Source of the DNA: a virus
Taxonomy: Duplodnaviria > Caudoviricetes
IMG/VR virus record: IMGVR_UViG_3300049781_000043
Coordinates: 1-45,765 of that record
Reading direction: 5' to 3' (one strand)
DNA: 45,765 nucleotides
The position numbers and the translations under genes are program-made. The notes beneath the pieces are model-generated. The model saw only the letters and a list, made by a program, of their open reading frames with translations, had not been told where the DNA came from and ran no database searches. Position 1 is the stretch's first letter; every line of letters starts with the position of its first letter. Positions 837-19,535 of the stretch are shown here, in pieces.

Positions 837-874
837 TAAACTCGAACACTGACGCCGCTGGTTATGGGCCGGGC
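837..874 (+). promoter_or_regulatory. Late-leader element copy 1 (854-874) with upstream -10-like TAAACT (837-842)
   Basis: GCCGCTGGTTATGGGCCGGGC; one of nine copies. Confidence 0.85.
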
Positions 875-907
875 GACTCCTCCGACCTCATATGAGGAGC
901 CCTGCCC

Positions 908-1915
908 ATGGCGAAGTGCTGCGGCGCCCGCTCCTGCTTCTGCACCGTGACGGCCGGGCCCGGCGTCACGGTCGACGGGAACGGCTCGCCCACCAACCCC
1001 TACGTCGTCAGCTCGGACGCGGCGGCCACGCCCACCCCGCTCGGTGTCACCGACACCCCGACCGTCGACCTCACCCTCACCGGCACGGGCACGGCCGGCG
1101 ACCCCTACGACGTCCACGCGGACGTGATCCTCGACCCGACGCCGCCCGGCGGGGGCTCGAACCTGCTTCAGGCCGGTCCCGAGGGCCTGTTCGTCGAGTG
1201 CGCCGACGTCCGGACCTGCTTCAGCGCAGGCGACGGCGCCGGGTACGACCCGGCCACCGGGGAGATCACGGCGCGCCTGTCGACCGACCCGGGCAACGCC
1301 GCGGTGTTCGGTACGGACGGCGGCCTCTACGCCCCGGTCGGGGGCAGCGCGGCCGTGCAGACCGCGTGCGGCCTCACCGGGGACGGCACGGCCGGGACGC
1401 CCCTCGCCGCCGAGGTGGCCGCCTGGCCGTACCCGTGCGACGTCGACGCGAACGCGGGCCGGGTGTTCTGCGACAACACGGGGCAGTTGCGCTCCGAGCC
1501 CCGCGGCTCCATCACGTTCATGCAGGATCAGCAGACCTTGGACGCCGCCGACCTGGTGGTCCCCACACCCGAGGACACGGAGGTTGCCACCCACGTCCTC
1601 AACGTGCCCAACCCGGATCCGTGCCGCTCGGCGTTCGTGATCATGGAGGCGGAGGTCGACGCGGATTTCAACCTCCCCCCGGGGGCCGGTGCCGCGCTCG
1701 GTATCAGCACGGATGAGATGTCCTACCTGGGCAACTCGGGGGCCACGCCGATCCTCGACACCCACGTCCAGAGCACGAAGGTCGTGAACGGCGGCACGAT
1801 CGCGCCGGGCGGAACGCTCACTTACACCCTCTCCATCCGCATGGGCCGGGGGTCCGCGGGCGCGACCTACAACCGCGTTCAATCCTTCCTCCGTGCCTTC
1901 GTCGTCGTCCTGTAA
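908..1915 (+). CDS. Cys-rich fibre-like virion protein, paralog A
   Basis: GAGGAG RBS; MAKCCGARSCFC N-terminus, GxGTxxxPY repeats; similar along its length to 17943-18779. Confidence 0.75.
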   Translation: MAKCCGARSCFCTVTAGPGVTVDGNGSPTNPYVVSSDAAATPTPLGVTDTPTVDLTLTGTGTAGDPYDVHADVILDPTPPGGGSNLLQAGPEGLFVECADVRTCFSAGDGAGYDPATGEITARLSTDPGNAAVFGTDGGLYAPVGGSAAVQTACGLTGDGTAGTPLAAEVAAWPYPCDVDANAGRVFCDNTGQLRSEPRGSITFMQDQQTLDAADLVVPTPEDTEVATHVLNVPNPDPCRSAFVIMEAEVDADFNLPPGAGAALGISTDEMSYLGNSGATPILDTHVQSTKVVNGGTIAPGGTLTYTLSIRMGRGSAGATYNRVQSFLRAFVVVL

Positions 1916-1926
1916 GGAGCGCCCCC

Positions 1927-2217
1927 ATGACAGATCTGTACTACCGCACCGCTGGCGGGGTCCTGGCGTCCCGGACGGCGACCGGTGACCACCCGGAGAC
2001 CCCGGCGCTCCCCGAGGGAGCTACGGCCCTCACAGAGGGCGAGTACGCCGACGCCCTCGCCGATGTCGAGGCGCAGCGCGCGAGCTACACGCAGCAGCTC
2101 AAGCAGGAGACCGAGACGAACCAGCAGGCCGATTACGAGGCGCTGCGGACGGCCGGCATCCCCGAGGCCAGCGCGCGCCGCCTGTCCGGCTACACCGGCC
2201 CTGGCGACGGCGCCTGA
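1927..2217 (+). CDS. Small partner of fibre A (putative fibre assembly chaperone)
   Basis: AAGGAG RBS; C-terminal YEALRTAGIPEASARRLSGYTGP matches 18791-19156. Confidence 0.7.
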   Translation: MTDLYYRTAGGVLASRTATGDHPETPALPEGATALTEGEYADALADVEAQRASYTQQLKQETETNQQADYEALRTAGIPEASARRLSGYTGPGDGA

Positions 2218-2247
2218 CCGGCCCTCACGAGACGGAGCACTCCCTTC

Positions 2248-3231
2248 ATGGCTAACTGCTGCGGCGCGGCGCGCTGCACCTGCCGCGTCATCGCCGGCCC
2301 CGGCATCACGGTCGACGGCAACGGCGCACCCGGCGCGCCCTACGTCATCAGCGGACAGGCGGCGGCCGGGACCGTCGTGCAGGCCGCCGACACCTCGACC
2401 CTCGACGCCCACGTCACCGGCACAGGGGCCGCAGGAGACCCGTACATCGTCTCTGGGGACGTCATCGTCGCCCCGGAGCCCAACGGCGTCGAGGCGGCCG
2501 CAAACGGCCTCCTCGTCGCTCCCAGCGCCGACGCGGGGAACCGTCTGGCGTTCGGTGGCGACGGGCGCCTCTACGTCCCCCCGGCGCCCCCGCCCGAGGT
2601 CGGGTGTGGCCTCCGGGGCGACGGGACTGCGGCCTCCCCGCTCGCGGCGTACCCGATTGGCGGTTCGGACGCGTGGGCCGATCACTGGAACTGCACCGAC
2701 ACCGCGCACTCGACGCTGAAGTGCGACCCTGCCACTGGGGCCCTGTGGACGCCGCCGGAGCACTACACGGCGGCTGACCACCTGTATCAGGAGCACATGA
2801 GCCCGTCGATCGCGTCCATGGGTCCCACGAGCGGATGGGCGGTCCTCCAGCCGGGCGGCGTCCCGGCGTTCTTCCGCTTCGACGTGCCGGCGAACTTCCT
2901 CGGGAACGACTGCCGCCTGTGGACGTGGGACAGCCAGGTCAACGGCTCGATGGATATCAATTGGTCATCCACGGCCACGTTCGAAGTCGGGTACGTCGTG
3001 CAGAAGGACGGCGGCCCGGCGATGGTGCGCCCGCTGTGGAGCATCCTCACCGCCACCGGGTCGGCCCGCCGGGAGCGGCGTGCCGGTGGCGTCTGCGAAG
3101 CGATGTTCAACCTCCCGGCTGGCAGCGGGAGCACGGTGGTGTACTTCCCGGCTGTCAACGTGCTCACCGGGACGATCGGCATCAACTCGTGGACGTCGGA
3201 CGGCACGATCCACACCACCACTCAGGCGTGA
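2248..3231 (+). CDS. Cys-rich fibre-like virion protein, paralog B
   Basis: MANCCGAARCTC; N-terminal half similar to paralog A, different C-terminal domain. Confidence 0.75.
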   Translation: MANCCGAARCTCRVIAGPGITVDGNGAPGAPYVISGQAAAGTVVQAADTSTLDAHVTGTGAAGDPYIVSGDVIVAPEPNGVEAAANGLLVAPSADAGNRLAFGGDGRLYVPPAPPPEVGCGLRGDGTAASPLAAYPIGGSDAWADHWNCTDTAHSTLKCDPATGALWTPPEHYTAADHLYQEHMSPSIASMGPTSGWAVLQPGGVPAFFRFDVPANFLGNDCRLWTWDSQVNGSMDINWSSTATFEVGYVVQKDGGPAMVRPLWSILTATGSARRERRAGGVCEAMFNLPAGSGSTVVYFPAVNVLTGTIGINSWTSDGTIHTTTQA

Positions 3232-3244
3232 CCGGAGGGCACCT

Positions 3245-3496
3245 ATGCCGCGCTATTTCGCATCCCCCGACGGTTCGGCCGTCGCCATGGCCGAGGACGG
3301 CCCTGTCGCCTCCTCGTCGCTCCCGCCGGACTGGACGGAGATCACCGCCGAGGAGTACGCCACGAAGCAGGAGGAGCACCGCCAGGCGGCCGACGCGCTC
3401 GCCGCGGACTTCATCGCCAGCGACGGGCAGCTCCCCCCGCCGGACGAGGGCACACCGCCGCCCGTCGAGGATCCGCCCCTCGACGGCGGGAAGTAG
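3245..3496 (+). CDS. Small partner of fibre B (putative chaperone)
   Basis: GGAGG RBS before ATG 3245; LPPDWTEITAEEYA resembles LPEGATALTEGEYA and IPEGAKLVTQEEYE. Confidence 0.7.
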   Translation: MPRYFASPDGSAVAMAEDGPVASSSLPPDWTEITAEEYATKQEEHRQAADALAADFIASDGQLPPPDEGTPPPVEDPPLDGGK

Positions 3497-3501
3497 GCGG
3501 C

Positions 3502-5493
3502 GTGCGCGTCCTGTTCCTGCTCCCGTATTACGGGACCGCCACGCCCACGGGGGCGTTCATCACGAGCCGGGAGTACGCCCTCGGCCTGGTGGCGGCCGGG
3601 CACACGGTCGACGTCGTCCTGACGCGCCGTGAGCCCGGCACCGTGCACGTCGAGGACGGTGTACGGGTGTGGCCCGAGCGGGAATGGTGGAGCGCCGTCC
3701 GCACGGTGCGGCCGGAGCTGGTGATCTCCCACCACGGCGACCGCCGGGCCCCTCAGATGGTGCAGCACCTCCGGGCGGTGCCCCACCTGCTGATGGTGCA
3801 CGGCCTGACCGGACGGCCCCGGCTCGGGGCGCCGGCGCTCGCCTGGTTCCCCTCGCACGCCTGCCGCGACCACTACCGCGACTATCGGGGCCGGGCCCTG
3901 GTCCTGCCTCCTCCGGTCGACCCGGGGCTCTACCGCACCCGGCCGGGGACGCTGGTCACGATGAACGGGACCGCGCCGGAGAAAGGCCCTGGCGTCCTTG
4001 CTGAGGTGGCCGCCCGGATGCCCGACGAGCGGTTCCTCCTCGTCGAGTCCTACGGCTACTCGGCCGCCGTCGACCTGCCGAACGTCGAGATCGCCGGACG
4101 GATGGACCCGCGCGCCCTGTACGCCCGCACCCGGCTGCTGCTGATGCCCTCGACGACGGAGTCCTACGGGCGGGTCGGCGTCGAGGCGATGCTGTCGGGG
4201 ATCCCCGTGATCGCCTCCCCGTTGCCTGGTATCCGCGAAGCCCTCGGGGACGCCGCGGTGTACGTGCCCCGCGACCGGGCGGACAGGTGGGTCGAGGAGG
4301 TCCGGCGCCTGTCTGCCCCGGCGGCCTACGCGGCGGCCTCCGGCCGCGCCCTGGCGCACGCCGAGGGCTTGGACCACGCGGCCACCGTCGCCGCGTTCAC
4401 CGCGGCGTGCGAACGCCTCGCCCGGCCCGTGGCCCCGGTGCGGGCGCGCCGCCCGGCCGTCCCGCCGCCCGTCGAGGACGCCGACGTTGTGGCGTGGGTC
4501 CACTTCGGGGTGCCCTACCGGAGGGCCGGGTCGGAGACCATGCTTCACACGATGATGCGCGCCCTCGTCGAGGCCGGGCTGTCGGGGCTGGTGGTCTGCT
4601 CCGACATGCGCGAGGCGCCCGCCGGATGGGACGTCGACGGCGTCCCGTACCGGCACCTCGCCCCGGCCGCGGCCGCCGACCTCGTCCGGGCGCTGCGGCC
4701 GAAGGTCGTCGTCACACACCACGACTTCGCCGAGCAGGCGATCATCCTGTCCCACGAGACCGGCGCCCGCTCGCTGCTGCTGGTACACAACGACTTCGAC
4801 CGCTCCGCGCGCGCCCTCGCGGCCGGCCCCGACCTGGCGGTCTACAACACCCGGTGGGTCCTGGAGTCGCTGACCGGCCGGTACCCGGAGCAGGTCCGCG
4901 CGGCCGGCGCCCTGGTCGTGCACCCCCCAGTTCTCCCCGACGAGCACCGGGCGCCCCGGCCGGGGACACACGTGACGCTCGTGAACCTCAGCAGGCACAA
5001 GGGCGTGGACACCTGGCGGGCGGTCGCCGGGCTGCGCCGCGACCTGCCGTTCCTCGGCGTCATGGGAGCGCACGGCGAGCAGGTCGCCCGGATCACACAG
5101 CCGAACATGCGGATCGCGCGGCCGACGTCGGACATGCGGCGGGACGTGTGGGCGCGTACGCGGGTGCTGATGGTCCCGAGCGTCTACGAGTCGTATGGCA
5201 TGGCTGCCGTCGAGGCCCTGGCGTCGGGGCTCCCCGTCATCGCGCACCCCACCCCGGGCCTGCGTGAAGCCCTCGGCGAGGCCGGGACGTTCGTCGACCG
5301 GGCCGACTGCCGGGCGTGGGCGGCCACTGTCCGGGGCCTGTACCGCAACGGGCCGCGCCGCGAGGAGGCCACCGCCGCGGCGGTCGAGCGCAGCGCGTTC
5401 CTCGCCGACCAGACCCGCCACGAGCTGAAGCTGTGGACGGCCGCGGTCCAGGATCTCGCACACGCAACGGTGCGGAAGCCTGGCCACAGCTAG
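3502..5493 (+). CDS. Tandem (two-domain) GT-B/GT4-family glycosyltransferase
   Basis: Two GT4 motifs: LMPSTTESYGRVGVEAMLSGIPVIAS and MVPSVYESYGMAAVEALASGLPVIAH. Confidence 0.92.
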   Translation: MRVLFLLPYYGTATPTGAFITSREYALGLVAAGHTVDVVLTRREPGTVHVEDGVRVWPEREWWSAVRTVRPELVISHHGDRRAPQMVQHLRAVPHLLMVHGLTGRPRLGAPALAWFPSHACRDHYRDYRGRALVLPPPVDPGLYRTRPGTLVTMNGTAPEKGPGVLAEVAARMPDERFLLVESYGYSAAVDLPNVEIAGRMDPRALYARTRLLLMPSTTESYGRVGVEAMLSGIPVIASPLPGIREALGDAAVYVPRDRADRWVEEVRRLSAPAAYAAASGRALAHAEGLDHAATVAAFTAACERLARPVAPVRARRPAVPPPVEDADVVAWVHFGVPYRRAGSETMLHTMMRALVEAGLSGLVVCSDMREAPAGWDVDGVPYRHLAPAAAADLVRALRPKVVVTHHDFAEQAIILSHETGARSLLLVHNDFDRSARALAAGPDLAVYNTRWVLESLTGRYPEQVRAAGALVVHPPVLPDEHRAPRPGTHVTLVNLSRHKGVDTWRAVAGLRRDLPFLGVMGAHGEQVARITQPNMRIARPTSDMRRDVWARTRVLMVPSVYESYGMAAVEALASGLPVIAHPTPGLREALGEAGTFVDRADCRAWAATVRGLYRNGPRREEATAAAVERSAFLADQTRHELKLWTAAVQDLAHATVRKPGHS

Positions 5494-5571
5494 ACTCCTT
5501 GATCGTAGGTATGCCGCTGGTTCTGGGCCGGGCTCCCCACCACGTATGACGCTGCTGGTTGTGGGCCGAGC
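5491..5571 (+). promoter_or_regulatory. Late-leader element copies 2a (5513-5533) and 2b (5551-5571) with -10-like TAGACT (5491-5496)
   Basis: GCCGCTGGTTCTGGGCCGGGC and GCTGCTGGTTGTGGGCCGAGC. Confidence 0.85.
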
Positions 5572-5602
5572 CACCACACGCCATTCGTGTTGGAGGGCCC
5601 CA

Positions 5603-6307
5603 GTGACTTGCCCCCTGATCGCAAACCTCGACACCGTCCGCGTCACCAGAGTCGACAACTGTGGTCGGCCTGTCTGTGGCGACGACAACGGTTTCGTCTT
5701 CGACTGCCTCGCCAGCGTCGCCATGAACCCGAACACGGACGACGGCGACGATGTGAGCTACAAGGCCGCCAACGGGAAGCAGTGCGGTTTCAAGCGCGGC
5801 TGCCCGACGTTCAACGGCTACGACGTCGAGATCAACTTCTTTAGCGTCAGCCCGGAGTTCCTGGAGATCACCACCGGTAACCCGGTCGTGTTCGACTACG
5901 CGGGCAAGCCCATCGGCTACGACGACTGCTCGCTCCAGTGCAACAGCGGTTTCGCGCTGGAGCTGTGGGCCGAGGTGCTGGGCTCCGACGCCTGCGCCGC
6001 CGACGCCTCGGGCGACGGCGCATGGATCTACTTCTTGCTCCCGTGGGTGACGAACGGAATCCTCGGGGACCTCGAAGTCGGCTCGGAGGCCGTGACGCTC
6101 CAGCTGACCGGCGCGACCCGCTCCGGTGGCGGCTGGGGTGTCGGACCGTACGACGTCATCGCGAAGGACGCGGCCGGCACCCCGAGCCCGCTCCTCACCC
6201 CGCTCGGCTCGACCTGCCACCGCAGGACGATGGTCACGACCATCGCGCCCCCAGCGCCGGTCTGCGACTACGTCCCGGTCACCGGCGGCCTGTGCCTGGC
6301 CTCCTGA
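5603..6307 (+). CDS. Major tail (tube) protein
   Basis: GGAGG RBS before GTG 5603; RVTRVDNCGRP, KAANGKQC, FALELW, YFLLPWV and WGVGPYDV motifs of actinophage tail tube proteins. Confidence 0.8.
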   Translation: MTCPLIANLDTVRVTRVDNCGRPVCGDDNGFVFDCLASVAMNPNTDDGDDVSYKAANGKQCGFKRGCPTFNGYDVEINFFSVSPEFLEITTGNPVVFDYAGKPIGYDDCSLQCNSGFALELWAEVLGSDACAADASGDGAWIYFLLPWVTNGILGDLEVGSEAVTLQLTGATRSGGGWGVGPYDVIAKDAAGTPSPLLTPLGSTCHRRTMVTTIAPPAPVCDYVPVTGGLCLAS

Positions 6308-6320
6308 CGCCGTGACGGAC

Positions 6321-7019
6321 ATGGACCTCGTCGTGCCGGTGCGGCAAGGCGCGGTGAATCAGCAGCTCAGGTTCGCCCTGCGCAGTTGGGCCGCGCACCT
6401 GCCGCACCGGCGCGTGTGGCTCGTGGGGTACCGGCCGCCCTGGACCGAGGGCGTCCGGTACCTGTCGACCCCTCAGACCGGCACGAAGTACGTCAACACC
6501 ACCCGGGCGGTCGCAGCGGCGTGCCGCAACCAGGGCGTCAGCGACCCGTTCGTCCTCATGAATGACGACTTCTTCACCATGGAGCCGCTGCCCGGCGGGG
6601 TGCCGGTGCTGCATCGCGGCCCGGTCCGCGAGGTCGAGGCGTACTACGCGACCCGCGGGAACGGCTCCTATCTCCAGGGGCTCCGGTCGACGAGGGACCT
6701 CCTCGTCGACCTCGGTCACGAGGACCCGGTGTCCTACGAGCTTCACGTCCCCCTGGTCGTCCACAAAGAGGGGATGTTCCACGCCCTCGACGTCGGTCGG
6801 CACCTGCCTGTGCTGCACAAGCGGACGGCGTACGGGAACCTCGCGAAGATCGGCGGCGAGCAGGTCGAGGACGTCAAAGTCATGTGGCGCGGCCCCCGCT
6901 TCCCGGCCGGGCCGTTCCTGTCGACCATGCCGGACGCGTTCGACAACGGCATGGTCGGCGCACACGTCCGGCGCACCTTCGCCGAGCCGGGCCCGTACGA
7001 GCAGGGAGGCGGCCGGTGA
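6321..7019 (+). CDS. Stealth-family-like (hexose-phosphotransferase/glycosyltransferase-like) protein
   Basis: QLRFALRSW...VWLVGYRPPW, FVLMNDDFF and YELHVP resemble Stealth conserved regions; alternative start GTG 6312. Confidence 0.7.
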   Translation: MDLVVPVRQGAVNQQLRFALRSWAAHLPHRRVWLVGYRPPWTEGVRYLSTPQTGTKYVNTTRAVAAACRNQGVSDPFVLMNDDFFTMEPLPGGVPVLHRGPVREVEAYYATRGNGSYLQGLRSTRDLLVDLGHEDPVSYELHVPLVVHKEGMFHALDVGRHLPVLHKRTAYGNLAKIGGEQVEDVKVMWRGPRFPAGPFLSTMPDAFDNGMVGAHVRRTFAEPGPYEQGGGR

Positions 7020-8765: not shown

Positions 8766-8779
8766 CAGCCGGGGGCGGT

Positions 8780-8814
8780 TACCCTACGGTCACGCCGCTG
8801 GTTCTGGGCCGGGC
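8780..8814 (+). promoter_or_regulatory. Late-leader element copy 3 (8794-8814) with -10-like TACCCT (8780-8785)
   Basis: GCCGCTGGTTCTGGGCCGGGC. Confidence 0.85.
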
Positions 8815-8843
8815 GAGGAGCGCGGGAGACAAGGACACGACCC

Positions 8844-9395
8844 GTGGCACGTAAGAAGATCACGCTCAACACGGAGCCCCACGTCGTCGAGATCGGCGAC
8901 ACCGAGCTTCTGTTCCTCCCCGAGGTCATGGGGGACGAGTTCGTCGACGCGTTCGGCGAGCTGAAGGAGGCGCAGAAGGCCGCCAGCGGTATCGACCTCG
9001 ACGACCTCTCGACGCTCGACCAGTCCATGATCCGGGGCGCCGCCCGCGCGATGCGCGCCTTCCTGGCGCGGCTCATGCTGCCTGAGTCGGCCGACCTGTT
9101 CACCCGGATCAACGTCGTCGACACCGCCGGGACGATGCTGGAGTCCTTCCACGACCAGGACGAGGCGAAGGCGTACGCCGAGCAGCACAAGGGCTCGCGG
9201 ACCGTGGACGCCTTCCCGCTGCCGGACCGGGTCCTCGTCGACATCATGGAGTTCGTCGTCCAGCTGTACGGGGCCGGTGCCGACGAGCGCCCTCCTACGT
9301 CGTCCTCCGCCTCGTCGAAGCCATCGCCGAAGGGTGGGAGGCGTGGGATGGGAGTCTCGCCCTCCAGGGCGTCAACCCCCGCGAGTGGCCGCTGA
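8844..9395 (+). CDS. Tail assembly chaperone (gpG-like)
   Basis: Upstream of tape measure; acidic helical protein with low-complexity tail after ERPPT. Confidence 0.8.
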   Translation: MARKKITLNTEPHVVEIGDTELLFLPEVMGDEFVDAFGELKEAQKAASGIDLDDLSTLDQSMIRGAARAMRAFLARLMLPESADLFTRINVVDTAGTMLESFHDQDEAKAYAEQHKGSRTVDAFPLPDRVLVDIMEFVVQLYGAGADERPPTSSSASSKPSPKGGRRGMGVSPSRASTPASGR

Positions 9396-9640: not shown

Positions 9641-9718
9641 GCTGAGATCAGCCGGGCCGTGTGCCCGCCTGCTGCCGACTGGTTTTGGGCCGGGCACACC
9701 GCTGGTTCTGGGCCGGGT
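9638..9718 (+). promoter_or_regulatory. Late-leader element copies 4a (9674-9695) and 4b (9698-9718) with -10-like TAGGCT (9638-9643)
   Basis: GCCGACTGGTTTTGGGCCGGGC and ACCGCTGGTTCTGGGCCGGGT. Confidence 0.85.
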
Positions 9719-9747
9719 AACACCACTCACTCACGTGGGGTTGCCCG

Positions 9748-12700
9748 ATGGCCGGCGAGGAAGAGGATTACGGATCCGCCCGGATCACCATTGATCTGGA
9801 CGACGCTGACGCCGTCGCGGATGCCCGGGAGCTCGGCCTCCGTATCGCCCGCGCCCTGGACCGCGCCACCCGCACTATCGGTGCGCAGATCCGCCGCAAC
9901 ATCCAACGGGGCATCACGGCGGCCGGGGCCGTCAAGGTCAAGGTCGAGCCCGACCTCAGCGGCTTCAACGACGCGCTACTCACCGAGCTCCGGTCACGTC
10001 TCGACGCGATCCGTATTCCCGTCGAGCCGGACTTGCGCCGGTTCAACCGGGGGCTGATCCAGGGGCTAAGCGACCTGGACGGGATCAACATCCCGATCAT
10101 CCCGGACCTGCGGCGGTTCGAGACGCTGCTTCGCAACGGGCTCCGTGGCCTAGAGGTCCGTATCCCGGTCGTCCCGGACCTTGACGGTTTGGATGCTCGT
10201 ATCCGGGCGCACCGGCCGCCGGACATCAACGTCCGGGTCAACGCGGACGTCGACAACGACCGGCTGTCGCGCGCCCTGTCCGGCGTGGGCGGGATCGCTG
10301 GCCGGGTTGTCAGGGCGCTGCGTGGCCTGCTGGTCTTCGGTGCTGTCGGCATCGCCGCGGCGAGCGCCGCTCAGGGCGTGGGCGCGCTGCTGGCGGCGCT
10401 CGCTCCGGCGGGCGGCATCATCGCCGCACTCCCGGCCGTCATCGCCACCACACAGGTCGCCCTGGGCACGCTCAAGCTGGCCGTCCTCGGCGTCGGGGAT
10501 GCCCTCTCCGCTGCGTTTGCCGGGGACGCGAAGAAGTTCAGCGAGGCCCTGGAGAAGCTGTCACCGGCGGCGCAGAAGGCGGTGCTGGCGGTCAAGGCGC
10601 TGGGGCCGGAACTCCGCAACGTGCAGCAAGGCATCCAGCAGTCATTTTTCAAGCAGTTCTCCGGGGACATCACCAACGCGATCAAGAATTTGCTGCCGCT
10701 GAAAACGCAGCTCAACCAGGTCGCGACCGAGTTCGGCAAGGCTGCCTCCGAGGGACTGAAGTTCGCGGCGAGCGAGCAGGCCACCGCCCCCCTCAAGACG
10801 ATCATTCAGGGCACGGCGCAGGCCGCCTCCGGGCTCCAGTCCGCTATCGCCCCGCTCGTGAAGGGGTTCCTGGACGTTGCGGCCGCGGTCACCCAGGCGT
10901 TCGGCAAGCAGGTCGGCGACCGGATCGGGCAGGTCGGCGCGCAGGTCGGCACCTTCCTGTCCGCGTTCGCCGCTTCCGGGCGGGCCGTGGAAGTCGTGCG
11001 CGGCGCGCTGGCCGTCTTCCGTCAGCTGGGCGCCATCGCCAAGAACGTGGGCGGCATCCTCCGCGGCGTCTTCGCTGCCGCCGATGCTTCTGGCGGCGGG
11101 CTGCTGAACAACCTCCAGCAGATCACCGGTTCGTTCCGGGAGTTCGTCAACAGCGCGCGGGGCCAGGAGGCAATTCAGAACCTGTTCGGGACGGTCGCCA
11201 CCATCGCGGCGCAGCTCGGCCCCATTCTGTCGTCCCTGGTCACGCAGGTCGGGCGTATCGCACCGGCCTTGGGCCCGGTCTTTGAAGAGCTCGGCCCAGC
11301 CATCACCGGGCTGATCGACGCGCTCGGTCCGGCGGTCGCCAAGATCGCTCCGAGTCTGCAAGACGTGGCGCGCGGCCTGGGCGAGGCGTTCAAGGCGATC
11401 GGCCCGTCGCTGGAGCCGCTGGGAGCGTCGATCGGCAAGGTCCTGGAGGCGCTGTCACCGCTGCTGCCTTTGGCCGGGGAGATCGCGGCCACCCTCGCCG
11501 ACGTACTCGGCCCTGTCCTGGATGATCTGGTCGCCTTGTTCCGGCCGATCATCGACGCGGTAGCGGACTCGCTGATCCCCGTCTTGCCGGAACTCGGCGA
11601 AGCCTTCAAGGGGGTCGCCAAGGCCCTGGAGCCTCTTGCGGCAGCTCTGGGGCAGGGCCTCGGTGACGCGATCCGGGAGATCCTGCCGCCCCTGGCGAAG
11701 CTGCTGCCGAAAGCGATCAAGGACATGACGCCAGCCCTGGAGAAGCTGGTGGACGCGGTCTCGCCGCTGATCCCGCAGCTGATCGACCTGGCCAAAGAGG
11801 CGATCAAGCCGCTCCTTCCCGAACTGCCCAAGCTCGTACGGCTGTCGGCCGACATGGCGAAGACCTTCGCGGACCTCGCCGTCAAGCTCAAGCCCATCCT
11901 CCCGCCGCTGCTCAAGCTCACCGCCGCGCTCCTGAAGTTCGCCACCAGCAAGATCGTCGTTCCGCTGCTCAAGAAGATCATCAGCGGCCTGACCGGGCTG
12001 GCCCGCATCACCGAGAAAGTCCTCGGCAAGATCGGCGACTTCGTCGACGACGTCATCGGCTTCTTCCGGAAGCTGTACGACGTCCTCGTCGGCCACAGCA
12101 TTATCCCGGACTTGATCAACGGCATCGTCGGTTGGTTCCAGCGGCTGCCGGAACAAGTCGGCCAAGTCGTATCCAGCATGGTCGACTCGGTGATCGGCTG
12201 GTTCCAGAGCCTTCCCGGGAAGGTCGGCGAGGCCCTTACCGCCCTGGGCCAGTTCCTGCTGACGAAGTTGGGTGAGGCGTTCGGGCAGGGGAAGGCGGCG
12301 GCGTCGTCCTTTGTGGATGCGACGGTTGCCCTTCTGGCTGGCCTGCCTGCCAAGGCTTTCGGAGCGCTGGCTGGGCTGGGCCAGTTCCTGCTGACGAAGT
12401 TGGGTGAGGCGTTCACGCAGGGGAAGGCGGCGGCGTCGTCCTTCGTGGACGCGACGGTTGCCCTTCTGGCTGGCCTGCCTGCCAAGGCCCTCGGAGCGCT
12501 GGCCGGGCTGGGCCAGCTCATCCTGAGCAAGCTGGGTGAGGCGTTCGGGCAGGGGAAGGCGGCGGCGTCGTCCTTCGTGGGTGCGACTGTCGCCGTTCTG
12601 GCTGGCCTGCCTGGCAAGGCCCTCGGGGCGCTGTCCTCGCTCGGCTCCCGCTTGGCCGGTGTCCTCCGCAGTGCGGGTAACTCTGCCTTGGGCGCGGCCC

Positions 12701-14136
12701 GGTCGGCAGGCTCCTCCATCGTGTCCTTCTTCGGCGGGCTGCCCGGCCGTGTCCGCAGCGCGGTGTCCTCGCTCGGCTCGCGTGTCGCCGGTGTCTTCCG
12801 CAGTGCCGGATCGGCCGCGCTCGGCGCGGCCCGGTCGGCAGGCGCCAGCATCGTGTCCTACTTCAACGGCCTGCCCGGCCGGGTGAGGGGGGCCCTGTCC
12901 GGGGCCGGGTCGGCGCTGGTGGGTGTCGGTCGGGACCTGATCCGCGGCATGATCAGCGGCGTCTCGTCCATGGCGGGCTCCATCGCCTCGAAAGCGCGAA
13001 GTGTGGTGAGCGGGGCGATCTCCGCGGCTAAGAGCGCGCTGGGCATCAACAGCCCTTCCAAGGTGTTCGCAGCGATCGGCCGGGACACCGGGCGCGGTTT
13101 CATCCAGGGCCTCACCGGCACTGCCTCCAAGATCAAGGCAACGACGGACAAGCTCGCGCGAGACATCATCAAGGCATTCCAGGGCCGGAAGACCCGGCTA
13201 GACGATCGCCTCGTGGCCCTGGTCGACTCGGGGAACAAGAGGCTGACCAAGCTCGCGGCGCAGCGGGACAAGCTCGCGCAGCGGATCGCGGACGCCCAGA
13301 AGTTCGCCACGGACACCACGAAGGCGGCGCTCGCAGCGTTCAGCCTTCAGAGCCTCACGCAGGGGGACGAGGCGGTCACGAGGAAGGGGATCGCGGCCGG
13401 GCTCCAGGACGCCGTGAAGCGGGTGAAGTCGTTCACGGCGCAGATCAACACCCTCGCCCGCAAGGGGCTCCGTAAGGACCTGCTACAGCAGATCATCGGG
13501 CTCGGTCCGGAGCAGGGCGCCGAGATCGCGTCGGTCCTCGCGTCGTCGACGAAGGACTCCCTCAAGAGGATCAACTCGCTTCAGGGGCAGCTCGCGAAGG
13601 CGTCCGGGACCCTAGGCAAGTCCAGCGCCGACATCTTGTTCGATGCCGGGAAGAACGCCGGGAAAGGCTTCCTCGCCGGTCTCCAGGGCCAGCGCAAGGC
13701 GATCGAAAAGCTCATGCTCACCATCGCCAAGGGAATGCAGTCGGCTATCCGTAAGGCGCTGCGCATCAAGTCCCCGAGCCGGGTGTTCATGCGCATCGGC
13801 GACATGACCGGCCTCGGGCTTCACCTCGGTCTGCTCAACCGGCTCGGCGCGCTCCAGGACGAAAGCGCCACGGCGGCCCGCGCCCTCGCCGACGGTGTCC
13901 GCGCACAGCTGACCGGGCTCGGCTCCAGCCTGCCAGACGGCGGGGTCGTGATCCCGCTGACGAAGGCGCAGCGCGCCCGCCAGGGCGGAGCCGACGGCAC
14001 CGGCCGGGGCCGCGCGGCGGCCGGCACCGGAACCACGATGATCAACAACTTTCATATCCGGGAGGTCGGCGACGGGCACGTCACAGCTCAGCGCGTGATC
14101 AACCGGCTCGTACTCGCGGCGGGAGTGGGTGGCTGA
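9748..14136 (+). CDS. Tape measure protein
   Basis: 1462 aa Ala/Leu/Gly-rich helical repeats; GHSIIPDL and two I(N/K)SPS(K/R)VF motifs; follows chaperones. Confidence 0.95.
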   Translation: MAGEEEDYGSARITIDLDDADAVADARELGLRIARALDRATRTIGAQIRRNIQRGITAAGAVKVKVEPDLSGFNDALLTELRSRLDAIRIPVEPDLRRFNRGLIQGLSDLDGINIPIIPDLRRFETLLRNGLRGLEVRIPVVPDLDGLDARIRAHRPPDINVRVNADVDNDRLSRALSGVGGIAGRVVRALRGLLVFGAVGIAAASAAQGVGALLAALAPAGGIIAALPAVIATTQVALGTLKLAVLGVGDALSAAFAGDAKKFSEALEKLSPAAQKAVLAVKALGPELRNVQQGIQQSFFKQFSGDITNAIKNLLPLKTQLNQVATEFGKAASEGLKFAASEQATAPLKTIIQGTAQAASGLQSAIAPLVKGFLDVAAAVTQAFGKQVGDRIGQVGAQVGTFLSAFAASGRAVEVVRGALAVFRQLGAIAKNVGGILRGVFAAADASGGGLLNNLQQITGSFREFVNSARGQEAIQNLFGTVATIAAQLGPILSSLVTQVGRIAPALGPVFEELGPAITGLIDALGPAVAKIAPSLQDVARGLGEAFKAIGPSLEPLGASIGKVLEALSPLLPLAGEIAATLADVLGPVLDDLVALFRPIIDAVADSLIPVLPELGEAFKGVAKALEPLAAALGQGLGDAIREILPPLAKLLPKAIKDMTPALEKLVDAVSPLIPQLIDLAKEAIKPLLPELPKLVRLSADMAKTFADLAVKLKPILPPLLKLTAALLKFATSKIVVPLLKKIISGLTGLARITEKVLGKIGDFVDDVIGFFRKLYDVLVGHSIIPDLINGIVGWFQRLPEQVGQVVSSMVDSVIGWFQSLPGKVGEALTALGQFLLTKLGEAFGQGKAAASSFVDATVALLAGLPAKAFGALAGLGQFLLTKLGEAFTQGKAAASSFVDATVALLAGLPAKALGALAGLGQLILSKLGEAFGQGKAAASSFVGATVAVLAGLPGKALGALSSLGSRLAGVLRSAGNSALGAARSAGSSIVSFFGGLPGRVRSAVSSLGSRVAGVFRSAGSAALGAARSAGASIVSYFNGLPGRVRGALSGAGSALVGVGRDLIRGMISGVSSMAGSIASKARSVVSGAISAAKSALGINSPSKVFAAIGRDTGRGFIQGLTGTASKIKATTDKLARDIIKAFQGRKTRLDDRLVALVDSGNKRLTKLAAQRDKLAQRIADAQKFATDTTKAALAAFSLQSLTQGDEAVTRKGIAAGLQDAVKRVKSFTAQINTLARKGLRKDLLQQIIGLGPEQGAEIASVLASSTKDSLKRINSLQGQLAKASGTLGKSSADILFDAGKNAGKGFLAGLQGQRKAIEKLMLTIAKGMQSAIRKALRIKSPSRVFMRIGDMTGLGLHLGLLNRLGALQDESATAARALADGVRAQLTGLGSSLPDGGVVIPLTKAQRARQGGADGTGRGRAAAGTGTTMINNFHIREVGDGHVTAQRVINRLVLAAGVGG
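12244..12630 (+). repeat. Three tandem 132-bp (44-aa) repeats within tape measure gene
   Basis: Units start at 12244, 12376 and 12508 (LGQFLLTKLGEAFGQGKAAASSFV...). Confidence 0.9.
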
Positions 14137-15455: not shown

Positions 15456-16499
15456 ATGGCGGTCGCGGGGTGCGGTACCCATACCGCCGCGGTGCTCGAC
15501 AGGAACGGCGCGACGGTCGCGGTCGCCGAGGTGCTGACCGAGGTGGAGTGGTCCAGGGTCCTGGACGGGGTCTCGACGGCGCGGGCGTTGATCCAGCCCG
15601 ATGGCGACTGCTGCAACCGGCTCGGCCGTGTTGGGACGTGGCGGAACCGGCTGGTGATCTTCCGTGATGGTCAGTACGTGTGGGACGGCCCGATCACCGG
15701 GATCTCGTGGTCCCTCGGTGAGGTGGAGCTGTCCGCCTCGGATGTCCTGGCCTGGCTCGACAACCGCGTCCCCCACGAAGCCCGGACGTTCACGAGCGTC
15801 GACCTCTCCGAGGTCGCGTCATGGCTGATCGAGGACGGCTACGCCCCCGACGACCCCGGGCACACGGTCCAGATCATCGACAAAGCCGGGGTCACCGGGT
15901 CGCGGACGTACTCGATCGGCATCGGCCAGACCGGGGACCACCTCCGCCAGCTCGCCGAAGCCGGGATCGACTTCACGGCCATCGGCTCGAAAATCCTGCT
16001 CCTGCCGGAAACGCACATGGCGAGCGTCGGCCGCCTCTCCGACGCCGACCTCCCCGACGGCCTCCAGGTTGCCGAGGACGGCGCGGCCCTCGTCACCCGG
16101 TGGGTTGTCGCCGGATCCGAGAACAGCGGCGCCATCGGGTCGTTCGGGGGCGTCGATCCCTACTACGGGCTGCATGAGCGGTACGTCGAAATGAGCGAGA
16201 TCACCGACAACGCCTCGGCGACGGAGGCCGCGAAGGCGCGGCAGCGGGTGAGCGGCGTGGTGCCGGTGTACGTGGACACCCAGCAGGTCACCATCAGTCC
16301 CCTCGCCGCGATCAACGTCCCCGCGCTGGTACCCGGCTGGTGCCTTGACGTCACCTCGGCCGGCACCTGCCGGACCGTGTCGCAGCGGCTGAAGATCACC
16401 GGTCTCAAAGTCGCTGAGACCGGCGGCGACGACAGCAGCCCCGGCGCGGAGAGCGTGCAAGTCCAGGTAGCGGCAAGCGGAGCGGAGGCGGCGGTCTGA
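15456..16499 (+). CDS. Minor tail protein (tail-tip hub/Gp37-like)
   Basis: EWSRVLDGVSTA and LVIFRDGQYVWDGPI motifs; second gene after tape measure. Confidence 0.75.
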   Translation: MAVAGCGTHTAAVLDRNGATVAVAEVLTEVEWSRVLDGVSTARALIQPDGDCCNRLGRVGTWRNRLVIFRDGQYVWDGPITGISWSLGEVELSASDVLAWLDNRVPHEARTFTSVDLSEVASWLIEDGYAPDDPGHTVQIIDKAGVTGSRTYSIGIGQTGDHLRQLAEAGIDFTAIGSKILLLPETHMASVGRLSDADLPDGLQVAEDGAALVTRWVVAGSENSGAIGSFGGVDPYYGLHERYVEMSEITDNASATEAAKARQRVSGVVPVYVDTQQVTISPLAAINVPALVPGWCLDVTSAGTCRTVSQRLKITGLKVAETGGDDSSPGAESVQVQVAASGAEAAV

Positions 16500-16954
16500 T
16501 GGCCATGCGTGGGAGCCCGGCCCGGCGGGTGCCGGGGAACCCTCTGGCGGGGGTACTGGTCCACCTCGACCAGCGCGCGAGGATCGGCGGCCGCAAACGG
16601 TCCCCCAGTGCCCCGGCGTTGGGCGAGGACACGTCGGCCCCGGCCGCGCCCGTGGCGGCGCCTGGCGCGCCCCTGGCGGCCGTTCTGACGTCCGGGGAGG
16701 ACGGGCGTGCCCGGCTCGACTTCCCGGCCCTGTACGGCCGCGTCCCGGCCGTCACCGCGGTCGCCGTCGACCCCGATCCCGGGGACGACGAACGCACCGT
16801 GTGGGCGGTGCTGGAGGAGGTCACCGGCTGGTACGCGACCGTCCGCGTGTGGCGGACCCGGGCGCGTCGAGGGTCGGGGGTCGCTGAGTCGGCCGGGCCG
16901 GGGGTGCGCGTCCACGTGATGGTGGCCCCCGTGGCAGGCGGCGAGGACGGTTAA
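16499..16954 (+). CDS. Putative minor tail protein
   Basis: TGATG overlap; resembles 525-830. Confidence 0.65.
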   Translation: MAMRGSPARRVPGNPLAGVLVHLDQRARIGGRKRSPSAPALGEDTSAPAAPVAAPGAPLAAVLTSGEDGRARLDFPALYGRVPAVTAVAVDPDPGDDERTVWAVLEEVTGWYATVRVWRTRARRGSGVAESAGPGVRVHVMVAPVAGGEDG

Positions 16955-16987
16955 CCTGCTGCTCGCGCCGCTGGTTGTGGGCCGGGC
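16952..16987 (+). promoter_or_regulatory. Late-leader element copy 5 (16967-16987) with -10-like TAACCT (16952-16957)
   Basis: GCCGCTGGTTGTGGGCCGGGC. Confidence 0.85.
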
Positions 16988-17014
16988 CGATCCTCCTGTG
17001 TCTGGAGTGCTCCC

Positions 17015-17737
17015 GTGGCCGCAGTGTGCGTAGATGACGACTACTTCGACGTCGGTCCGGACGGCCGACTCACGATGGTTCCGGGGTCCATGGGCCTGCG
17101 GGACATCCTGTACTTCAAGACCCCGGGGAGCTTCACGTTCGAGAAGGGTGACTACCCCTGGCTCTCGCGCATCTTCGTCCAGGTCCAGGCGGGCGGGGGA
17201 GGCGCGGCCGGCGCCCGCGCGAGCGCCAATTCGCTCGTGGCGCAGCCGGGCGGTTCGGGCGGCGGGTACGCGGAGCGGTTGGTCGAAGCCTCGACGTTGG
17301 GCGCCACGGAGTCGATCGTCGTCGGTGCGGGCGGCGACGCCGGGACGCCGACGGTCGACGGCGGTGCCGGTGGTGGCTCGTCCTTCGGTGGTCTGTGCAC
17401 GGCGCTGGGCGGCAACCCGGGCAACGCCGTCATGCCCTCGGGGGCGACGCCGATGTGCCTGTCCGGCACCTCGGGGCCCCTCGCGGGGGTGGGTGACTGG
17501 GCACAGGGTGGCGGCCCTGGTGGCGGCGCACTGCGGATCAACGGCAGCGATGGGCAGAGCGGCGAGGGCGGTGACTCCCACCTCGGTCACGGCGGCTGGC
17601 AGCGCGCCTCCAGCGGGGCGGGCGGCGCCACCCGCGGCTACGGCGCAGGCGCGGCCGGCGCCCTCGCCCGCGACGGTGACAGCGTCAACGGGACCGTTGG
17701 ATCGTCCGGGCTCGTCGTCGTCTGGCTCTTTGCCTGA
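17015..17737 (+). CDS. Glycine-rich domain tail fibre/spike protein
   Basis: VQVQAGGGG, GGSGGGYAE, VGAGG, SSFG and terminal GSSGLVVVW pattern of phage polyglycine-II domains. Confidence 0.8.
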   Translation: MAAVCVDDDYFDVGPDGRLTMVPGSMGLRDILYFKTPGSFTFEKGDYPWLSRIFVQVQAGGGGAAGARASANSLVAQPGGSGGGYAERLVEASTLGATESIVVGAGGDAGTPTVDGGAGGGSSFGGLCTALGGNPGNAVMPSGATPMCLSGTSGPLAGVGDWAQGGGPGGGALRINGSDGQSGEGGDSHLGHGGWQRASSGAGGATRGYGAGAAGALARDGDSVNGTVGSSGLVVVWLFA

Positions 17738-17744
17738 CCCCTCG

Positions 17745-17870
17745 GGCGGAGGGCCGTCCGCCCTGTCGTCCGCCCCTGGCGGACGGTGCGTCCCCGCAGG
17801 CCAGGAGCGCCGTCCGCCCTCGGCGTCCGCCGTCCGTCCGCGCGGTCGTCCGCACCCGGACGGGCGGGGC
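17745..17870. repeat. Intergenic cluster of CGTCCG/CGGACG short repeats
   Basis: Multiple G(C/T)CGTCCGC units and inverted CGGACGG copies. Confidence 0.65.
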
Positions 17871-17875
17871 GTCGA

Positions 17876-17913
17876 TAGACTCGACGACGCACGCCGCTGG
17901 TTATGGGCCGGGT
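17876..17913 (+). promoter_or_regulatory. Late-leader element copy 6 (17893-17913) with -10-like TAGACT (17876-17881)
   Basis: GCCGCTGGTTATGGGCCGGGT. Confidence 0.85.
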
Positions 17914-17942
17914 CGTTGCAAGTCCGCGAGGACGGTGACTCA

Positions 17943-18779
17943 GTGGCGCGATGCGGCTGCGCGGGCGGTCAATGCGACTGCAAGGTAGAGCCCGGTACGA
18001 ACGTGTCGGTGAGCGGCAGCGGCTCCCCGGCGAACCCCTATGTGATCTCGGCGGAGGTCCCGTGCGAGGACGTCCGCGCGTGCCTGTCGGCCGGGCCCGG
18101 GATCACCTTCGATGCGGCGACCGGACAGATCTCCGGCCACCTCTCCAGCCAGGCCGGTAACAACATCACGGTCGGCCCGGACGGCGGTCTCATGGTGCCG
18201 ACGGCCGGGGGCCAGGTGCTCACCGGCTGCGGCCTGACCGGCAACGGCTCGGCCTCCGCGCCGGTCGCGGCGAACACGCAGGCGTGGCCGTACGGGTGCG
18301 CCGTCGACACCTACGCGGGCGGGGTCTACTGCGACACCCAAGGGAGGCTGCGGTCCGAGCCGCGGGGGAACCTCTCGTTCATCAGCTACTTCGACAACCG
18401 GGACTACAACGACATCGCCGTCCCAGCCGCACAGAACACCGTGCTCGACTCCTTCACGGTCAACGTGACCAACCCGGATCCCTGTCGTCAGGCGATGGTT
18501 CTGACGGAGCGAGAGGTCGACGTCTACGTGGCGCTTCCGGCCGGGGCCGCCGCGGGCACCGGGCAGGGCTCCGATGAGATGTTCTACATGCGCAACACCG
18601 GCACCTCGACGATCGTCGGAGTGCATGCGCAGAGCACGAAGTTCATCTCGGAGTCGTCCCTCCTCCCGCCCGGGGCGACGATGCCGGTGACGCTGAACGC
18701 GACCGGTGGCCGCGGTGCGGGCGGCGCCTACTACTACCAAATCAACTTCATCCTGCGGACCATGATCATCAGCCTGTGA
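17943..18779 (+). CDS. Cys-rich fibre-like virion protein, paralog C
   Basis: GTG 17943 (MARCGCAGGQCDC); shares AWPYxCxVD..G.V.CD..G.LRSEPRG and NPDPCR with 908-1915. Confidence 0.75.
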   Translation: MARCGCAGGQCDCKVEPGTNVSVSGSGSPANPYVISAEVPCEDVRACLSAGPGITFDAATGQISGHLSSQAGNNITVGPDGGLMVPTAGGQVLTGCGLTGNGSASAPVAANTQAWPYGCAVDTYAGGVYCDTQGRLRSEPRGNLSFISYFDNRDYNDIAVPAAQNTVLDSFTVNVTNPDPCRQAMVLTEREVDVYVALPAGAAAGTGQGSDEMFYMRNTGTSTIVGVHAQSTKFISESSLLPPGATMPVTLNATGGRGAGGAYYYQINFILRTMIISL

Positions 18780-18790
18780 GGAGCGCTGCC

Positions 18791-19156
18791 ATGTCCACTG
18801 GTTCCCCTGGTCTGCTCGGTTGGCCGTGGCCCTGGCCGGGCGGTGATGGCGAGGACCCGCCGGCGCCGCCGGAGCCGGTCACGAGCTACCTCCACCTCGC
18901 GGACGGCACCCTCTCCCAGATCACCGTGACCGGCACGGACCCGGTGATCCCCGAGGGCGCGAAGCTGGTGACGCAAGAGGAGTACGAGCAGCTGCGCGGG
19001 GCGATGCTCGAAGCCCGCGAGGCCCGTATCGCCGAGCTGATGGCCGCCGAGGAGGAGTCGATGCGCACGCAGTACGCCGACCTGAAGGCGGCCGGTATCC
19101 CCGAGGCGACCGCGCGGGCCCTGTCCCGCTACGAGGGCCCGGCGGAGGGGGCGTAA
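18791..19156 (+). CDS. Small partner of fibre C (putative chaperone)
   Basis: GAGGAG RBS before ATG 18791; YADLKAAGIPEATARALSRYEGP. Confidence 0.7.
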   Translation: MSTGSPGLLGWPWPWPGGDGEDPPAPPEPVTSYLHLADGTLSQITVTGTDPVIPEGAKLVTQEEYEQLRGAMLEAREARIAELMAAEEESMRTQYADLKAAGIPEATARALSRYEGPAEGA

Positions 19157-19159
19157 AGC

Positions 19160-19197
19160 TACACTCCAGGCACGACGCCGCTGGTTCTGGGCCGGGC
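19160..19197 (+). promoter_or_regulatory. Late-leader element copy 7 (19177-19197) with -10-like TACACT (19160-19165)
   Basis: GCCGCTGGTTCTGGGCCGGGC. Confidence 0.85.
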
Positions 19198-19223
19198 AGA
19201 CCCCCTCCTCGGGAGCAGAGCCC

Positions 19224-19535
19224 ATGTCCCCTCGCGGCGCGCCCTCCGCACCGCCCCGGCCGTCTGTCGGCCGGATCGTCCATTACCGCAGCCACGGCAC
19301 GCCCGTCCGCGAGGACGGCAGCCAGGCGCACCCGCCGCGGTGCCGGGCCGCGATCATCACCGACGTCTACGACGAGACCAACCCGCACCCCGACCCCGAG
19401 GTTGTCACCGGGGTCGAGGGCGCGGAGTGGGTCGCCCTCGCCGTGCTCAACCCACGCGGCACCTTCCACGACGACGCCTGTCACGACGAGACGACGAAGC
19501 TCGGCGGCACGTGGCACTGGCCGGAGGTGGTCTAG
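19224..19535 (+). CDS. Conserved phage hypothetical protein (PSVGRIVHY...GTWHWP type)
   Basis: PSVGRIVHY, RAAIIT and GTWHWP motifs recurrent in actinophages. Confidence 0.8.
   Translation: MSPRGAPSAPPRPSVGRIVHYRSHGTPVREDGSQAHPPRCRAAIITDVYDETNPHPDPEVVTGVEGAEWVALAVLNPRGTFHDDACHDETTKLGGTWHWPEVV

Follow-up and report, generated by a model that had tools for sequence, protein, structure and literature searches.

The virus record IMGVR_UViG_3300049781_000043 of the IMG/VR database raises the question of why the same 21-nucleotide (nt) motif, able to fold into an RNA hairpin, stands shortly upstream of seven of its start codons, and what it does next to the different sequences that follow it and that can fold over the ribosome-binding site (RBS). 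Here, the whole stretch that was analysed (45,765 nt) is called “the window”, and each leader, i.e. the hairpin and the sequence between it and the gene, is named after the position of its start codon. A first inspection of the letters alone, which we refer to as the original prediction, had claimed that in each leader the 3' arm of the hairpin can instead pair beside the start codon, around an inner stem that covers the Shine-Dalgarno (SD) sequence, that translation is off by default, and that stabilising the hairpin frees the RBS. By comparing these leaders with those of relatives and with control starts, we have partly confirmed the observation and found partial support for its interpretation as a switch: the architecture of an invariant hairpin, whose 3' strand is able to close an RBS-occluding helix, is supported by both comparisons, with all energetics being predicted, and the mutually exclusive fold is real and statistically enriched in most, though not all, of the gene families that carry the hairpin. 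That the two competing folds place the late genes under translational control via the hairpin is plausible, yet unproven, and we would give it not quite an even chance.

The motif, (G)CCGCTGGTTNTGGGCCGGG(C), occurs in nine copies at the seven leaders, all on the + strand, where 0.59 copies would be expected. In the ViennaRNA fold of the 21-mer, the pairs are G1-C21, C2-G20, C3-G19, C5-G18, G7-C17, G8-C16, U9.G15 and U10.G14, with bulges at G4 and U6 and a loop formed by N11-U12-G13. We have aligned 43 copies (14 distinct rows) from the window, from five prophages (of Streptomyces, Embleya, Kitasatospora, Planomonospora and Nonomuraea) and from the temperate Streptomyces phage TurkishDelight, which is the sole isolated relative among 50,697 phage records (approximately 73% nucleotide identity over the tail genes); one reverse-strand match with three mismatches was left out as probable chance. 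In this alignment, 100% of the cells pair, both sides have changed in three of the eight pairs, and the covariation score is reached by 0 of 500 shuffles. Among 181 unique copies from IMG/VR and the window, positions 1 and 21 are occupied by GC (164 copies), AU (12), GU (3), AC (1) and GA (1); the variants U3-A19 and U3.G19 are also present among them and C3/A19 is not seen. A U2-A20 variant occurs in one Streptomyces and one Planomonospora genome, and, as we read the matches listed by a 2-mismatch scan of 16 genomes, 12 of the 13 variant copies in prophage clusters differ solely in the lower stem. The conserved 21-nt motif is a bulged RNA hairpin with covarying pairs, and it is read as RNA rather than as a DNA operator because of its wobble intermediates, its strand bias and its position. 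It is not a member of any Rfam family (0 covariance-model matches at the gathering score on both strands of the whole window), its sequence words occur in no paper of the literature searched, and a literature search on late promoters and stem-loops of Streptomyces phages returned nothing relevant.

The exact core of the motif is found at no fewer than 187 IMG/VR loci and at least 139 loci of species-representative genomes. The genome matches are clustered and multi-copy in Streptomyces, Kitasatospora, Embleya, Nonomuraea and Planomonospora; single matches in unrelated phyla look like chance. TurkishDelight carries nine copies at seven leaders, i.e. those of the capsid, the major tail protein (two copies), the chaperone, the tape measure (two copies), the minor tail protein gp30, gp32 and the tailspike gp33, and the genes that are headed by the motif belong to tail, capsid or lysis units only.

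The position of the hairpin is constrained on both sides. For the comparison of leaders, the loci were oriented and the starts were chosen by open frame, G+C content at third codon positions and SD; 185 of 189 leaders, having a spacer of 22 to 35 nt, were kept, of which 169 are unique. A box of the type gcTAnnCT is found within 30 nt upstream in 152 of the 169, ending 6 to 14 nt before G1, and no -35 consensus is found upstream of it in this set; judged by this -10 spacing, the hairpin would lie at the extreme 5' end of the RNA. Within the window, the TAnnCT box precedes the first copy by 8 to 16 nt in six leaders and by 31 nt in that of the tape measure, and a scan for sigma-70-type promoters returned 0 sites. 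On the other side, the last copy ends 33, 31, 29, 29, 27, 29 and 26 nt before the starts at 908, 5603, 8844, 9748, 17015, 17943 and 19224, exactly as had been predicted. The accompanying claim, that this spacing is much tighter than that to the -10 box, is true of the window (-10 gaps of 8 to 31 nt) and does not extend to the family, where the standard deviations are 2.66 nt from the hairpin to the start (mean 27.65 nt) and 2.48 nt from the -10 box to the hairpin.

The sequence that follows the hairpin is folded more tightly than its composition predicts. All energies are ViennaRNA predictions, compared with dinucleotide shuffles and with 104 curated TurkishDelight starts that lack the motif, 50 of which have an upstream gap of at least 30 nt. 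From the GGGC strand of the hairpin to the start codon, the minimum free energy (MFE) of the 169 leaders averages -13.4 kcal/mol and their z against shuffles averages -1.77, with z below -2 in 48.5% of them and above 0 in 17.8%. The two halves of the helix fit each other, since swapping 5' and 3' halves between dissimilar leaders weakens the fold (-13.4 for cognate versus -10.6 for swapped halves, p = 2e-17), the cognate pair being better than all 10 swaps in 44/169 leaders. Over the segment -32..+3, the MFE is -12.4 in motif leaders, -8.1 in controls and -6.3 in intergenic controls (p < 1e-5), with z of -1.37 versus 0.01 in controls (p < 1e-5), and the SD is unpaired with a probability of 0.27 versus 0.41 (p < 1e-5); leaders with the element are thus more structured, and their SD is more buried, than starts without it. 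By gene family, the median z is below -1 in 11 of 15 and below 0 in 14 of 15; in the two tail-chaperone families (families 3 and 9, 18 leaders), with median z of 0.26 and -0.19, the occluding fold is absent.

The start codons of the 169 leaders are ATG (72), GTG (66), TTG (28) and ATC (3), TTG being enriched relative to the TurkishDelight controls (28/169 versus 1/104). As a separate observation, the three IMG/VR leaders with ATC (L050, L133 and L143) belong to “VASVCVC” tail-fibre orthologues that apparently start at this codon, which lies at the usual distance from the hairpin (some 28 nt past it) and is replaced by GTG or ATG in their relatives.

The hairpin and the helix are connected through one strand: bases G18-C21, which form the lower stem of the hairpin, are the same four bases that close the occluding helix in many leaders. 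When all 16 tetramers made of G and C are tried in this place, GGGC is the one that stabilises the downstream arm most (-6.36 kcal/mol, with GGGG next at -5.54), and it ranks first in 54 of 154 leaders. Its complement, GCCC, lies within -8..-1 in 53 of the 169 motif leaders and in 9 of the 104 controls. Where position 21, masked for this purpose, is C, the base that faces it is G in 66 of 101 leaders; where it is U, the facing base is A in 6/10 and G in 4/10 (p = 1e-4), with the caveat that U21 faced by A is seen in capsid-type leaders only, possibly as the outcome of one or two evolutionary events.

In order to compare the two folds, we have computed the energy of each leader with the hairpin enforced (state A) and with positions 1-17 blocked (state B, closed), taking as reference the TurkishDelight control starts with the motif grafted at 28 nt upstream. 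The mean of B minus A is -0.06 kcal/mol in 166 leaders and +2.87 in the grafted controls (p = 4e-8), and 74/166 leaders prefer the closed state by more than 1 kcal/mol, versus 5/104 grafted controls. The balance depends on the gene: for tape-measure, capsid and major-tail leaders the closed state is the better one by 3 to 6 kcal/mol, and chaperone leaders and two Cys-rich families favour the hairpin state. The barriers between the states are predicted at 3.4 to 11.4 kcal/mol in the leaders of the window, at which the states would equilibrate. Opening the segment -14..+5 has a predicted cost of 17.1 kcal/mol in the free ensemble, which falls to 9.75 when the hairpin is locked; this relief of 7.4 kcal/mol compares with 2.4 in grafted controls (p = 1e-19) and with 2.41 in their intergenic subset (p = 1e-12). 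The relief in individual leaders of the window is listed in Table 1, with the exception of leader 5603, which was left out of this scoring as its last copy is the U3-A19 variant. Near-isoenergetic states, and a cut of about 7 kcal/mol in the cost of opening the RBS upon locking of the hairpin, are thus properties of the predicted folds.

On the basis of these folds, each late transcription unit would open with an invariant 21-nt hairpin, followed by a variable helix that buries the SD and the bases beside the start codon; the two would probably compete for the common GGGC strand, making the translation of virion and lysis genes dependent on whatever keeps the hairpin closed. We infer that a trans-acting reader could bind the hairpin and tip the balance towards translation, as Com of phage Mu does on the mom mRNA.

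Several of our results weigh against this reading. The 169 leaders represent about a dozen gene families, the energies are predictions on G+C-rich RNA, and the invariance of positions 3-20 in the large leader set is there by construction, the set having been gathered by the exact 18-nt core; the 2-mismatch scan of 16 genomes gives a fairer view of hairpin variation. GGGC also pairs downstream in 76 of the 104 grafted controls, the energy gap alone discriminating between them and the leaders. The hairpin state is favoured by more than 1 kcal/mol in 66 of the 166 leaders (26 being within 1 kcal/mol), which contradicts the notion of translation being generally off by default. Nor does each leader have an RBS-sequestering fold, as had been claimed: leader 8844 and 18 relatives keep the hairpin without the occluding fold, and among the seven leaders of the window taken alone the z of the spacer is convincing only for 908 and 9748. 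Folded as whole leaders, three of the seven in the window do no better than their shuffles (z of 0.65, 0.54 and 0.73). Lastly, locking the hairpin raises the probability of the SD being unpaired only from 0.27 to 0.34 (median change +0.02, mean +0.065), the SD remaining mostly in an inner stem that does not use GGGC.

Part of what the original prediction had proposed can nevertheless be retained. All 14 of the stem segments that it quoted are present at the positions that it gave, and the leader at 8844, which it had called the weakest, proves to be so, with a relief of only about 0.3 kcal/mol. Its expectation that stabilising the hairpin frees the RBS agrees with the predicted drop in opening cost, and does not hold for the SD as such, which barely changes; the start codon responds more, its unpaired probability rising from 0.37 to 0.53. 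With the SD hardly freed and the start codon freed more, the inner anti-SD stem appears to survive, and the hairpin would weaken the helix and remove a clamp beside the start codon, rather than expose the SD outright. In unconstrained folds, the hairpin has a probability of 0.01 to 0.04, and the motif also pairs with coding sequence, the controls behaving much alike.

A further point that weighs on the proposed switch is its reader, for which no candidate was found by our searches. A search of 60 window proteins by tblastn found no shared phage regulator, recovering only virion-module proteins in prophages of four other genera; the early genes of the window have counterparts in TurkishDelight and, in part, in one Streptomyces prophage only. 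Clustering of the open reading frames (ORFs) of seven genomes yielded no shared non-virion protein, the families present in at least five genomes being all of the virion module, and Pfam and PHROGs scans gave no RNA-binding candidate among the window proteins. Among 30 window proteins, Pfam identified no small zinc-finger activator similar to Com, in a window that lacks the genome's head end; a Zn_ribbon_12 match at 25796-26197 is sub-threshold. As no early phage protein is common to the motif-bearing phages compared, the reader may be a conserved host component; it could also be a virion-module protein, or the RNA could act alone. The most far-reaching form of the proposal, i.e. a family-wide regulon of strand-exchange riboregulators, in which one sensor hairpin and a conserved host reader would gate every virion and lysis unit through gene-specific, nearly isoenergetic RBS helices, we consider rather unlikely.

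Several pairing partners of the motif were considered and rejected. An antisense or small-RNA reader was discarded as there are no reverse-strand copies of the motif in the window (up to 3 mismatches), in TurkishDelight (up to 4) or in the five prophage regions (up to 2). The match of the motif to Streptomyces 16S rRNA is equalled by 5% of 300 shuffled motifs, and those of its sub-motifs by 31 to 76%. A kissing contact between the loop and the start codon was dismissed on the grounds that the free N11 shows no relation to the start codon or its context, and that no family has it constant. Pairing of the 5' strand GCCGC with NUG-GC could be considered since GCN is enriched as the second codon (101/169 motif leaders versus 19/104 controls); A1 variants occur without a matching change at +4, and the GCN excess is read as gene-family bias.

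The strongest alternative, to which we would assign a fairly low probability, involves no switch at all: the hairpin would be a stabiliser of the mRNA's 5' end against 5'-end-dependent RNases, or a docking or standby site for the ribosome, and the RBS helix would be independent of it, the overlap at GGGC being incidental. The location of the hairpin, which the -10 boxes would place at the 5' end of the RNA, suits this explanation, and so do the tail-chaperone leaders, whose hairpin, kept without an occluding fold, must have a role independent of the competition. It is also favoured by many of the TTG-start leaders, which close their helix after C21 (of the CAAGG/CCUUG type) in a manner that is compatible with the hairpin, and by the SD, which is paired with or without the locked hairpin. 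A stabiliser, however, needs no invariant upper stem and loop, a ribosome docking site is not suggested by a 16S rRNA complementarity that is no better than that of shuffled motifs, and the specific fit of GGGC, the pattern of bases facing position 21 and the near-isoenergetic states are left unexplained.

Action on transcription is less probable still. Promoter-proximal phage stem-loops that act in cis on RNA polymerase, with no fixed relation to an RBS, are known from HK022 put and lambda nut; the nascent hairpin could likewise modify or pause the polymerase (as put or the boxB of nut), or the helix could be an attenuator devoid of a U-tract, which the hairpin blocks. Two consecutive stem-loops directly downstream of bare -10 promoters are what such an element would look like, a hairpin that is invariant in phages of several actinomycete orders would suit a target as strongly conserved as RNA polymerase, and our searches returned no phage regulator common to the genomes compared. 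Against it, the hairpin is at a fixed distance from the start codon, the second helix is made of the SD and the start context, neither of which is required by an element directed at the polymerase, and the helices run into the start codon and the coding sequence, with no U-tract after them; in addition, terminator-like sites number 1 in 20 kb versus 4.6 expected, with none at a leader, and neither put nor nut has a sequence or Rfam match to the leader hairpin.

We find it improbable that the hairpin is a processing site, where a host or phage RNase cuts in or beside it and removes the 5' or the GGGC strand, opening or closing the RBS helix irreversibly: two conserved bulges with tandem G.U pairs are typical of recognition by a protein or RNase, and the tandem copies of the major-tail and tape-measure leaders would allow stepwise trimming, but the helices are short for RNase III and the energy balance of the two states would have no explanation. 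It is very improbable that the motif is an operator in double-stranded DNA, read by a repressor or late activator, for which the site just downstream of the -10 box would suit a roadblock repressor: all copies are on the coding strand, their changes are compensatory or G.U wobbles that keep RNA pairing and not DNA symmetry, the spacings to the start codon and to the -10 box are equally fixed, and no DNA-binding protein is common to the phages compared.

The competing-fold leader can be placed among known systems by its resemblances. In the platforms of translational riboswitches and in RNA thermometers, one strand has two alternative places to pair, the sensor helix or a helix that occludes the RBS, with an energetic balance between the two states. 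The sensor here, at 21 nt, is far smaller than known aptamers, is identical across genes while the platforms differ, and has no Rfam family. The closest system in function, by analogy, is Com/mom of phage Mu, of which the present leaders are not members: as described in PMC6483171, a hairpin lies just 5' of a translation-inhibition structure, and binding of the factor activates translation with a conformational change of the RNA. Most of our leaders similarly have their hairpin directly 5' of a predicted structure that occludes the SD and start. In Mu, there is a single target gene with its own phage zinc-finger protein, unlike the leaders here, which head at least seven units per genome, amount to hundreds of copies across several actinomycete genera and have no sequence relation to it.

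In genomic pattern, the hairpin resembles, without being a member of them, the start-associated sequences (SAS) and extended SAS (ESAS) of Cluster K mycobacteriophages. According to their description (PMC3203893), the SAS is a 13-bp GGGATAGGAGCCC with the SD inside it, placed 3 to 7 bp from the start; it belongs to the non-structural half of the genome and has a preference for ATG, and the ESAS repeats were judged not to support RNA pairing. Like the hairpin here, they are short asymmetric repeats in one orientation at many actinobacteriophage gene starts, with a suspected role in translation initiation and no reader identified for either. The hairpin differs from the SAS in sequence, in ending 26 to 33 nt before the start and in excluding the SD; it also differs from SAS and ESAS in heading virion and lysis genes, in being TTG-enriched and in its RNA covariation.

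If the competition is functional, temperate actinomycete phages would coordinate their capsid, tail and lysis output post-transcriptionally, by means of one RNA tag with a gene-specific gain that is set by each RBS helix; for phages of Actinomycetota, little is known of the translational control of late genes. Being short, modular and invariant in prophages of Streptomyces, Kitasatospora, Embleya, Nonomuraea and Planomonospora, the tag could become a portable expression switch for Streptomyces, or serve as bait for an RNA-binding factor, and its presence in the cultured phage TurkishDelight makes the idea directly testable.

The features of the seven leaders are collected in Table 1.

Table 1. 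Positions and predicted folding scores of the -10-like boxes, hairpins and RBS-occluding helices in the window. Energies (MFE, favoured state, relief) are in kcal/mol; A, hairpin state; B, closed state; relief, drop in RBS opening cost with the hairpin locked.
Leader	Feature	Position	Strand	Details	MFE	z	Favoured state	Relief
1	-10-like box TAAACT	837..842	+	11 nt upstream of hairpin				
1	Hairpin	854..874	+	Gene 908 (Cys-rich tail-fibre-like protein); motif scan, alignment				
1	RBS-occluding helix	871..907	+	GGGCG 871-875/UGCCC 903-907; CUCCUC 877-882/GAGGAG 894-899; ATG 908	-16.6 (spacer)	-3.33	B by 1.5	11.4
2	-10-like box TAGACT	5491..5496	+					
2	Hairpin copy 1	5513..5533	+	Major-tail leader				
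2	Hairpin copy 2	5551..5571	+	Major-tail leader; variant GCU...GAGC, pair 3-19 U-A not C-G				
2	RBS-occluding helix	5570..5598	+	5570-5572/5596-5598; 5574-5580/5586-5593; SD GGAGG partly inside; GTG 5603	-11.9	-1.26		
3	-10-like box TACCCT	8780..8785	+					
3	Hairpin	8794..8814	+	Tail-assembly-chaperone leader; GTG 8844; no convincing RBS-occluding fold		-0.21	A by 6.2	0.32
4	Hairpin copy 1	9674..9695	+	Tape-measure leader; bulge one base longer, GA				
4	Hairpin copy 2	9698..9718	+	Tape-measure leader; A1-U21 closing-pair variant				
4	RBS-occluding helix	9715..9746	+	GGGUAAC 9715-9721/GUUGCCC 9740-9746; CCAC 9723-9726/GUGG 9735-9738; SD GGGG 9737-9740 inside helix; ATG 9748 (tape measure); helix kept in 18 tape-measure leaders	-17.9	-3.68	B by 6.5	12.0
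5	-10-like box TAACCT	16952..16957	+					
5	Hairpin	16967..16987	+	Tail-fibre leader				
5	RBS-occluding helix, weak	16984..17014	+	GGG 16984-16986/CCC 17012-17014; CUCC 16993-16996/GGAG 17004-17007; GTG 17015	-8.5	-0.64	A by 2.9	6.2
6	-10-like box TAGACT	17876..17881	+					
6	Hairpin	17893..17913	+	Leader of second Cys-rich protein; G1.U21 wobble variant				
6	RBS-occluding helix	17910..17941	+	GGGUC 17910-17914/GACUC 17937-17941; GUCC 17922-17925/GGAC 17930-17933; GTG 17943	-12.2	-1.40		3.5
7	-10-like box TACACT	19160..19165	+					
7	Hairpin	19177..19197	+	Leader ahead of lysis cassette; endolysin at 19536				
7	RBS-occluding helix	19194..19223	+	GGGC 19194-19197/GCCC 19220-19223 around small inner stem; ATG 19224	-11.9	-0.77	States 0.4 apart	4.7

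The contig, which originates from a soil metagenome and is the whole assembly of the record, contains 72% G+C. According to Pfam and PHROGs scans, tail genes span 1-19 kb, including that of the major tail protein at 5603 (a phrog_792 match), followed by a head-tail adaptor gene, the tail assembly chaperone at 8844, the tape measure at 9748 and minor tail or fibre genes; the lysis cassette comes after them, with a holin-like gene at 20872. The rest of the window encodes an integrase (28865), repressor/Cro-like genes, RecE/RecT, DnaQ, RusA and WhiB, and ARAGORN found no tRNA in it. Head genes (terminase, portal, capsid) are absent from positions 1-45765 and the integrase is in the middle of the contig, which is an incomplete or permuted temperate phage genome; in the absence of head genes, any capsid-leader copy of the hairpin, such as relatives have, cannot be seen here. 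The literature search returned no paper that pairs “TurkishDelight” with Streptomyces.

The doubling of the hairpin in tandem (5513-5571 and 9674-9718) recurs in TurkishDelight and in several IMG/VR relatives. The annotated start of TurkishDelight gp33, at 30557, falls inside its leader hairpin at 30547-30567 (L188:30547-30600), and an ATG about 23 nt past this hairpin, which opens an ARCGC-type peptide as in related genes, looks like the true start.

Three paralogous proteins with Cys-rich N-termini are encoded at 908-2217, 2248-3231 and 17943-19156, and the copy that starts at 2248 has no leader hairpin. Small paralogous ORFs follow two of these three genes, where an 80-nt repeat is found (2134-2213 and 19073-19152, 73% identical). 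Upstream of the -10 box of the Cys-rich tail unit, many relatives carry two or three TGTCCGGACA-like palindromes, in place of which the window has degenerate GTCCG/CGGAC repeats (17830-17881); a DNA-binding regulator of this promoter alone may use the palindromes as its operator. Lastly, the tape-measure gene contains five tandem repeats of 132 nt at 12209-12867, with 77 to 87% identity.

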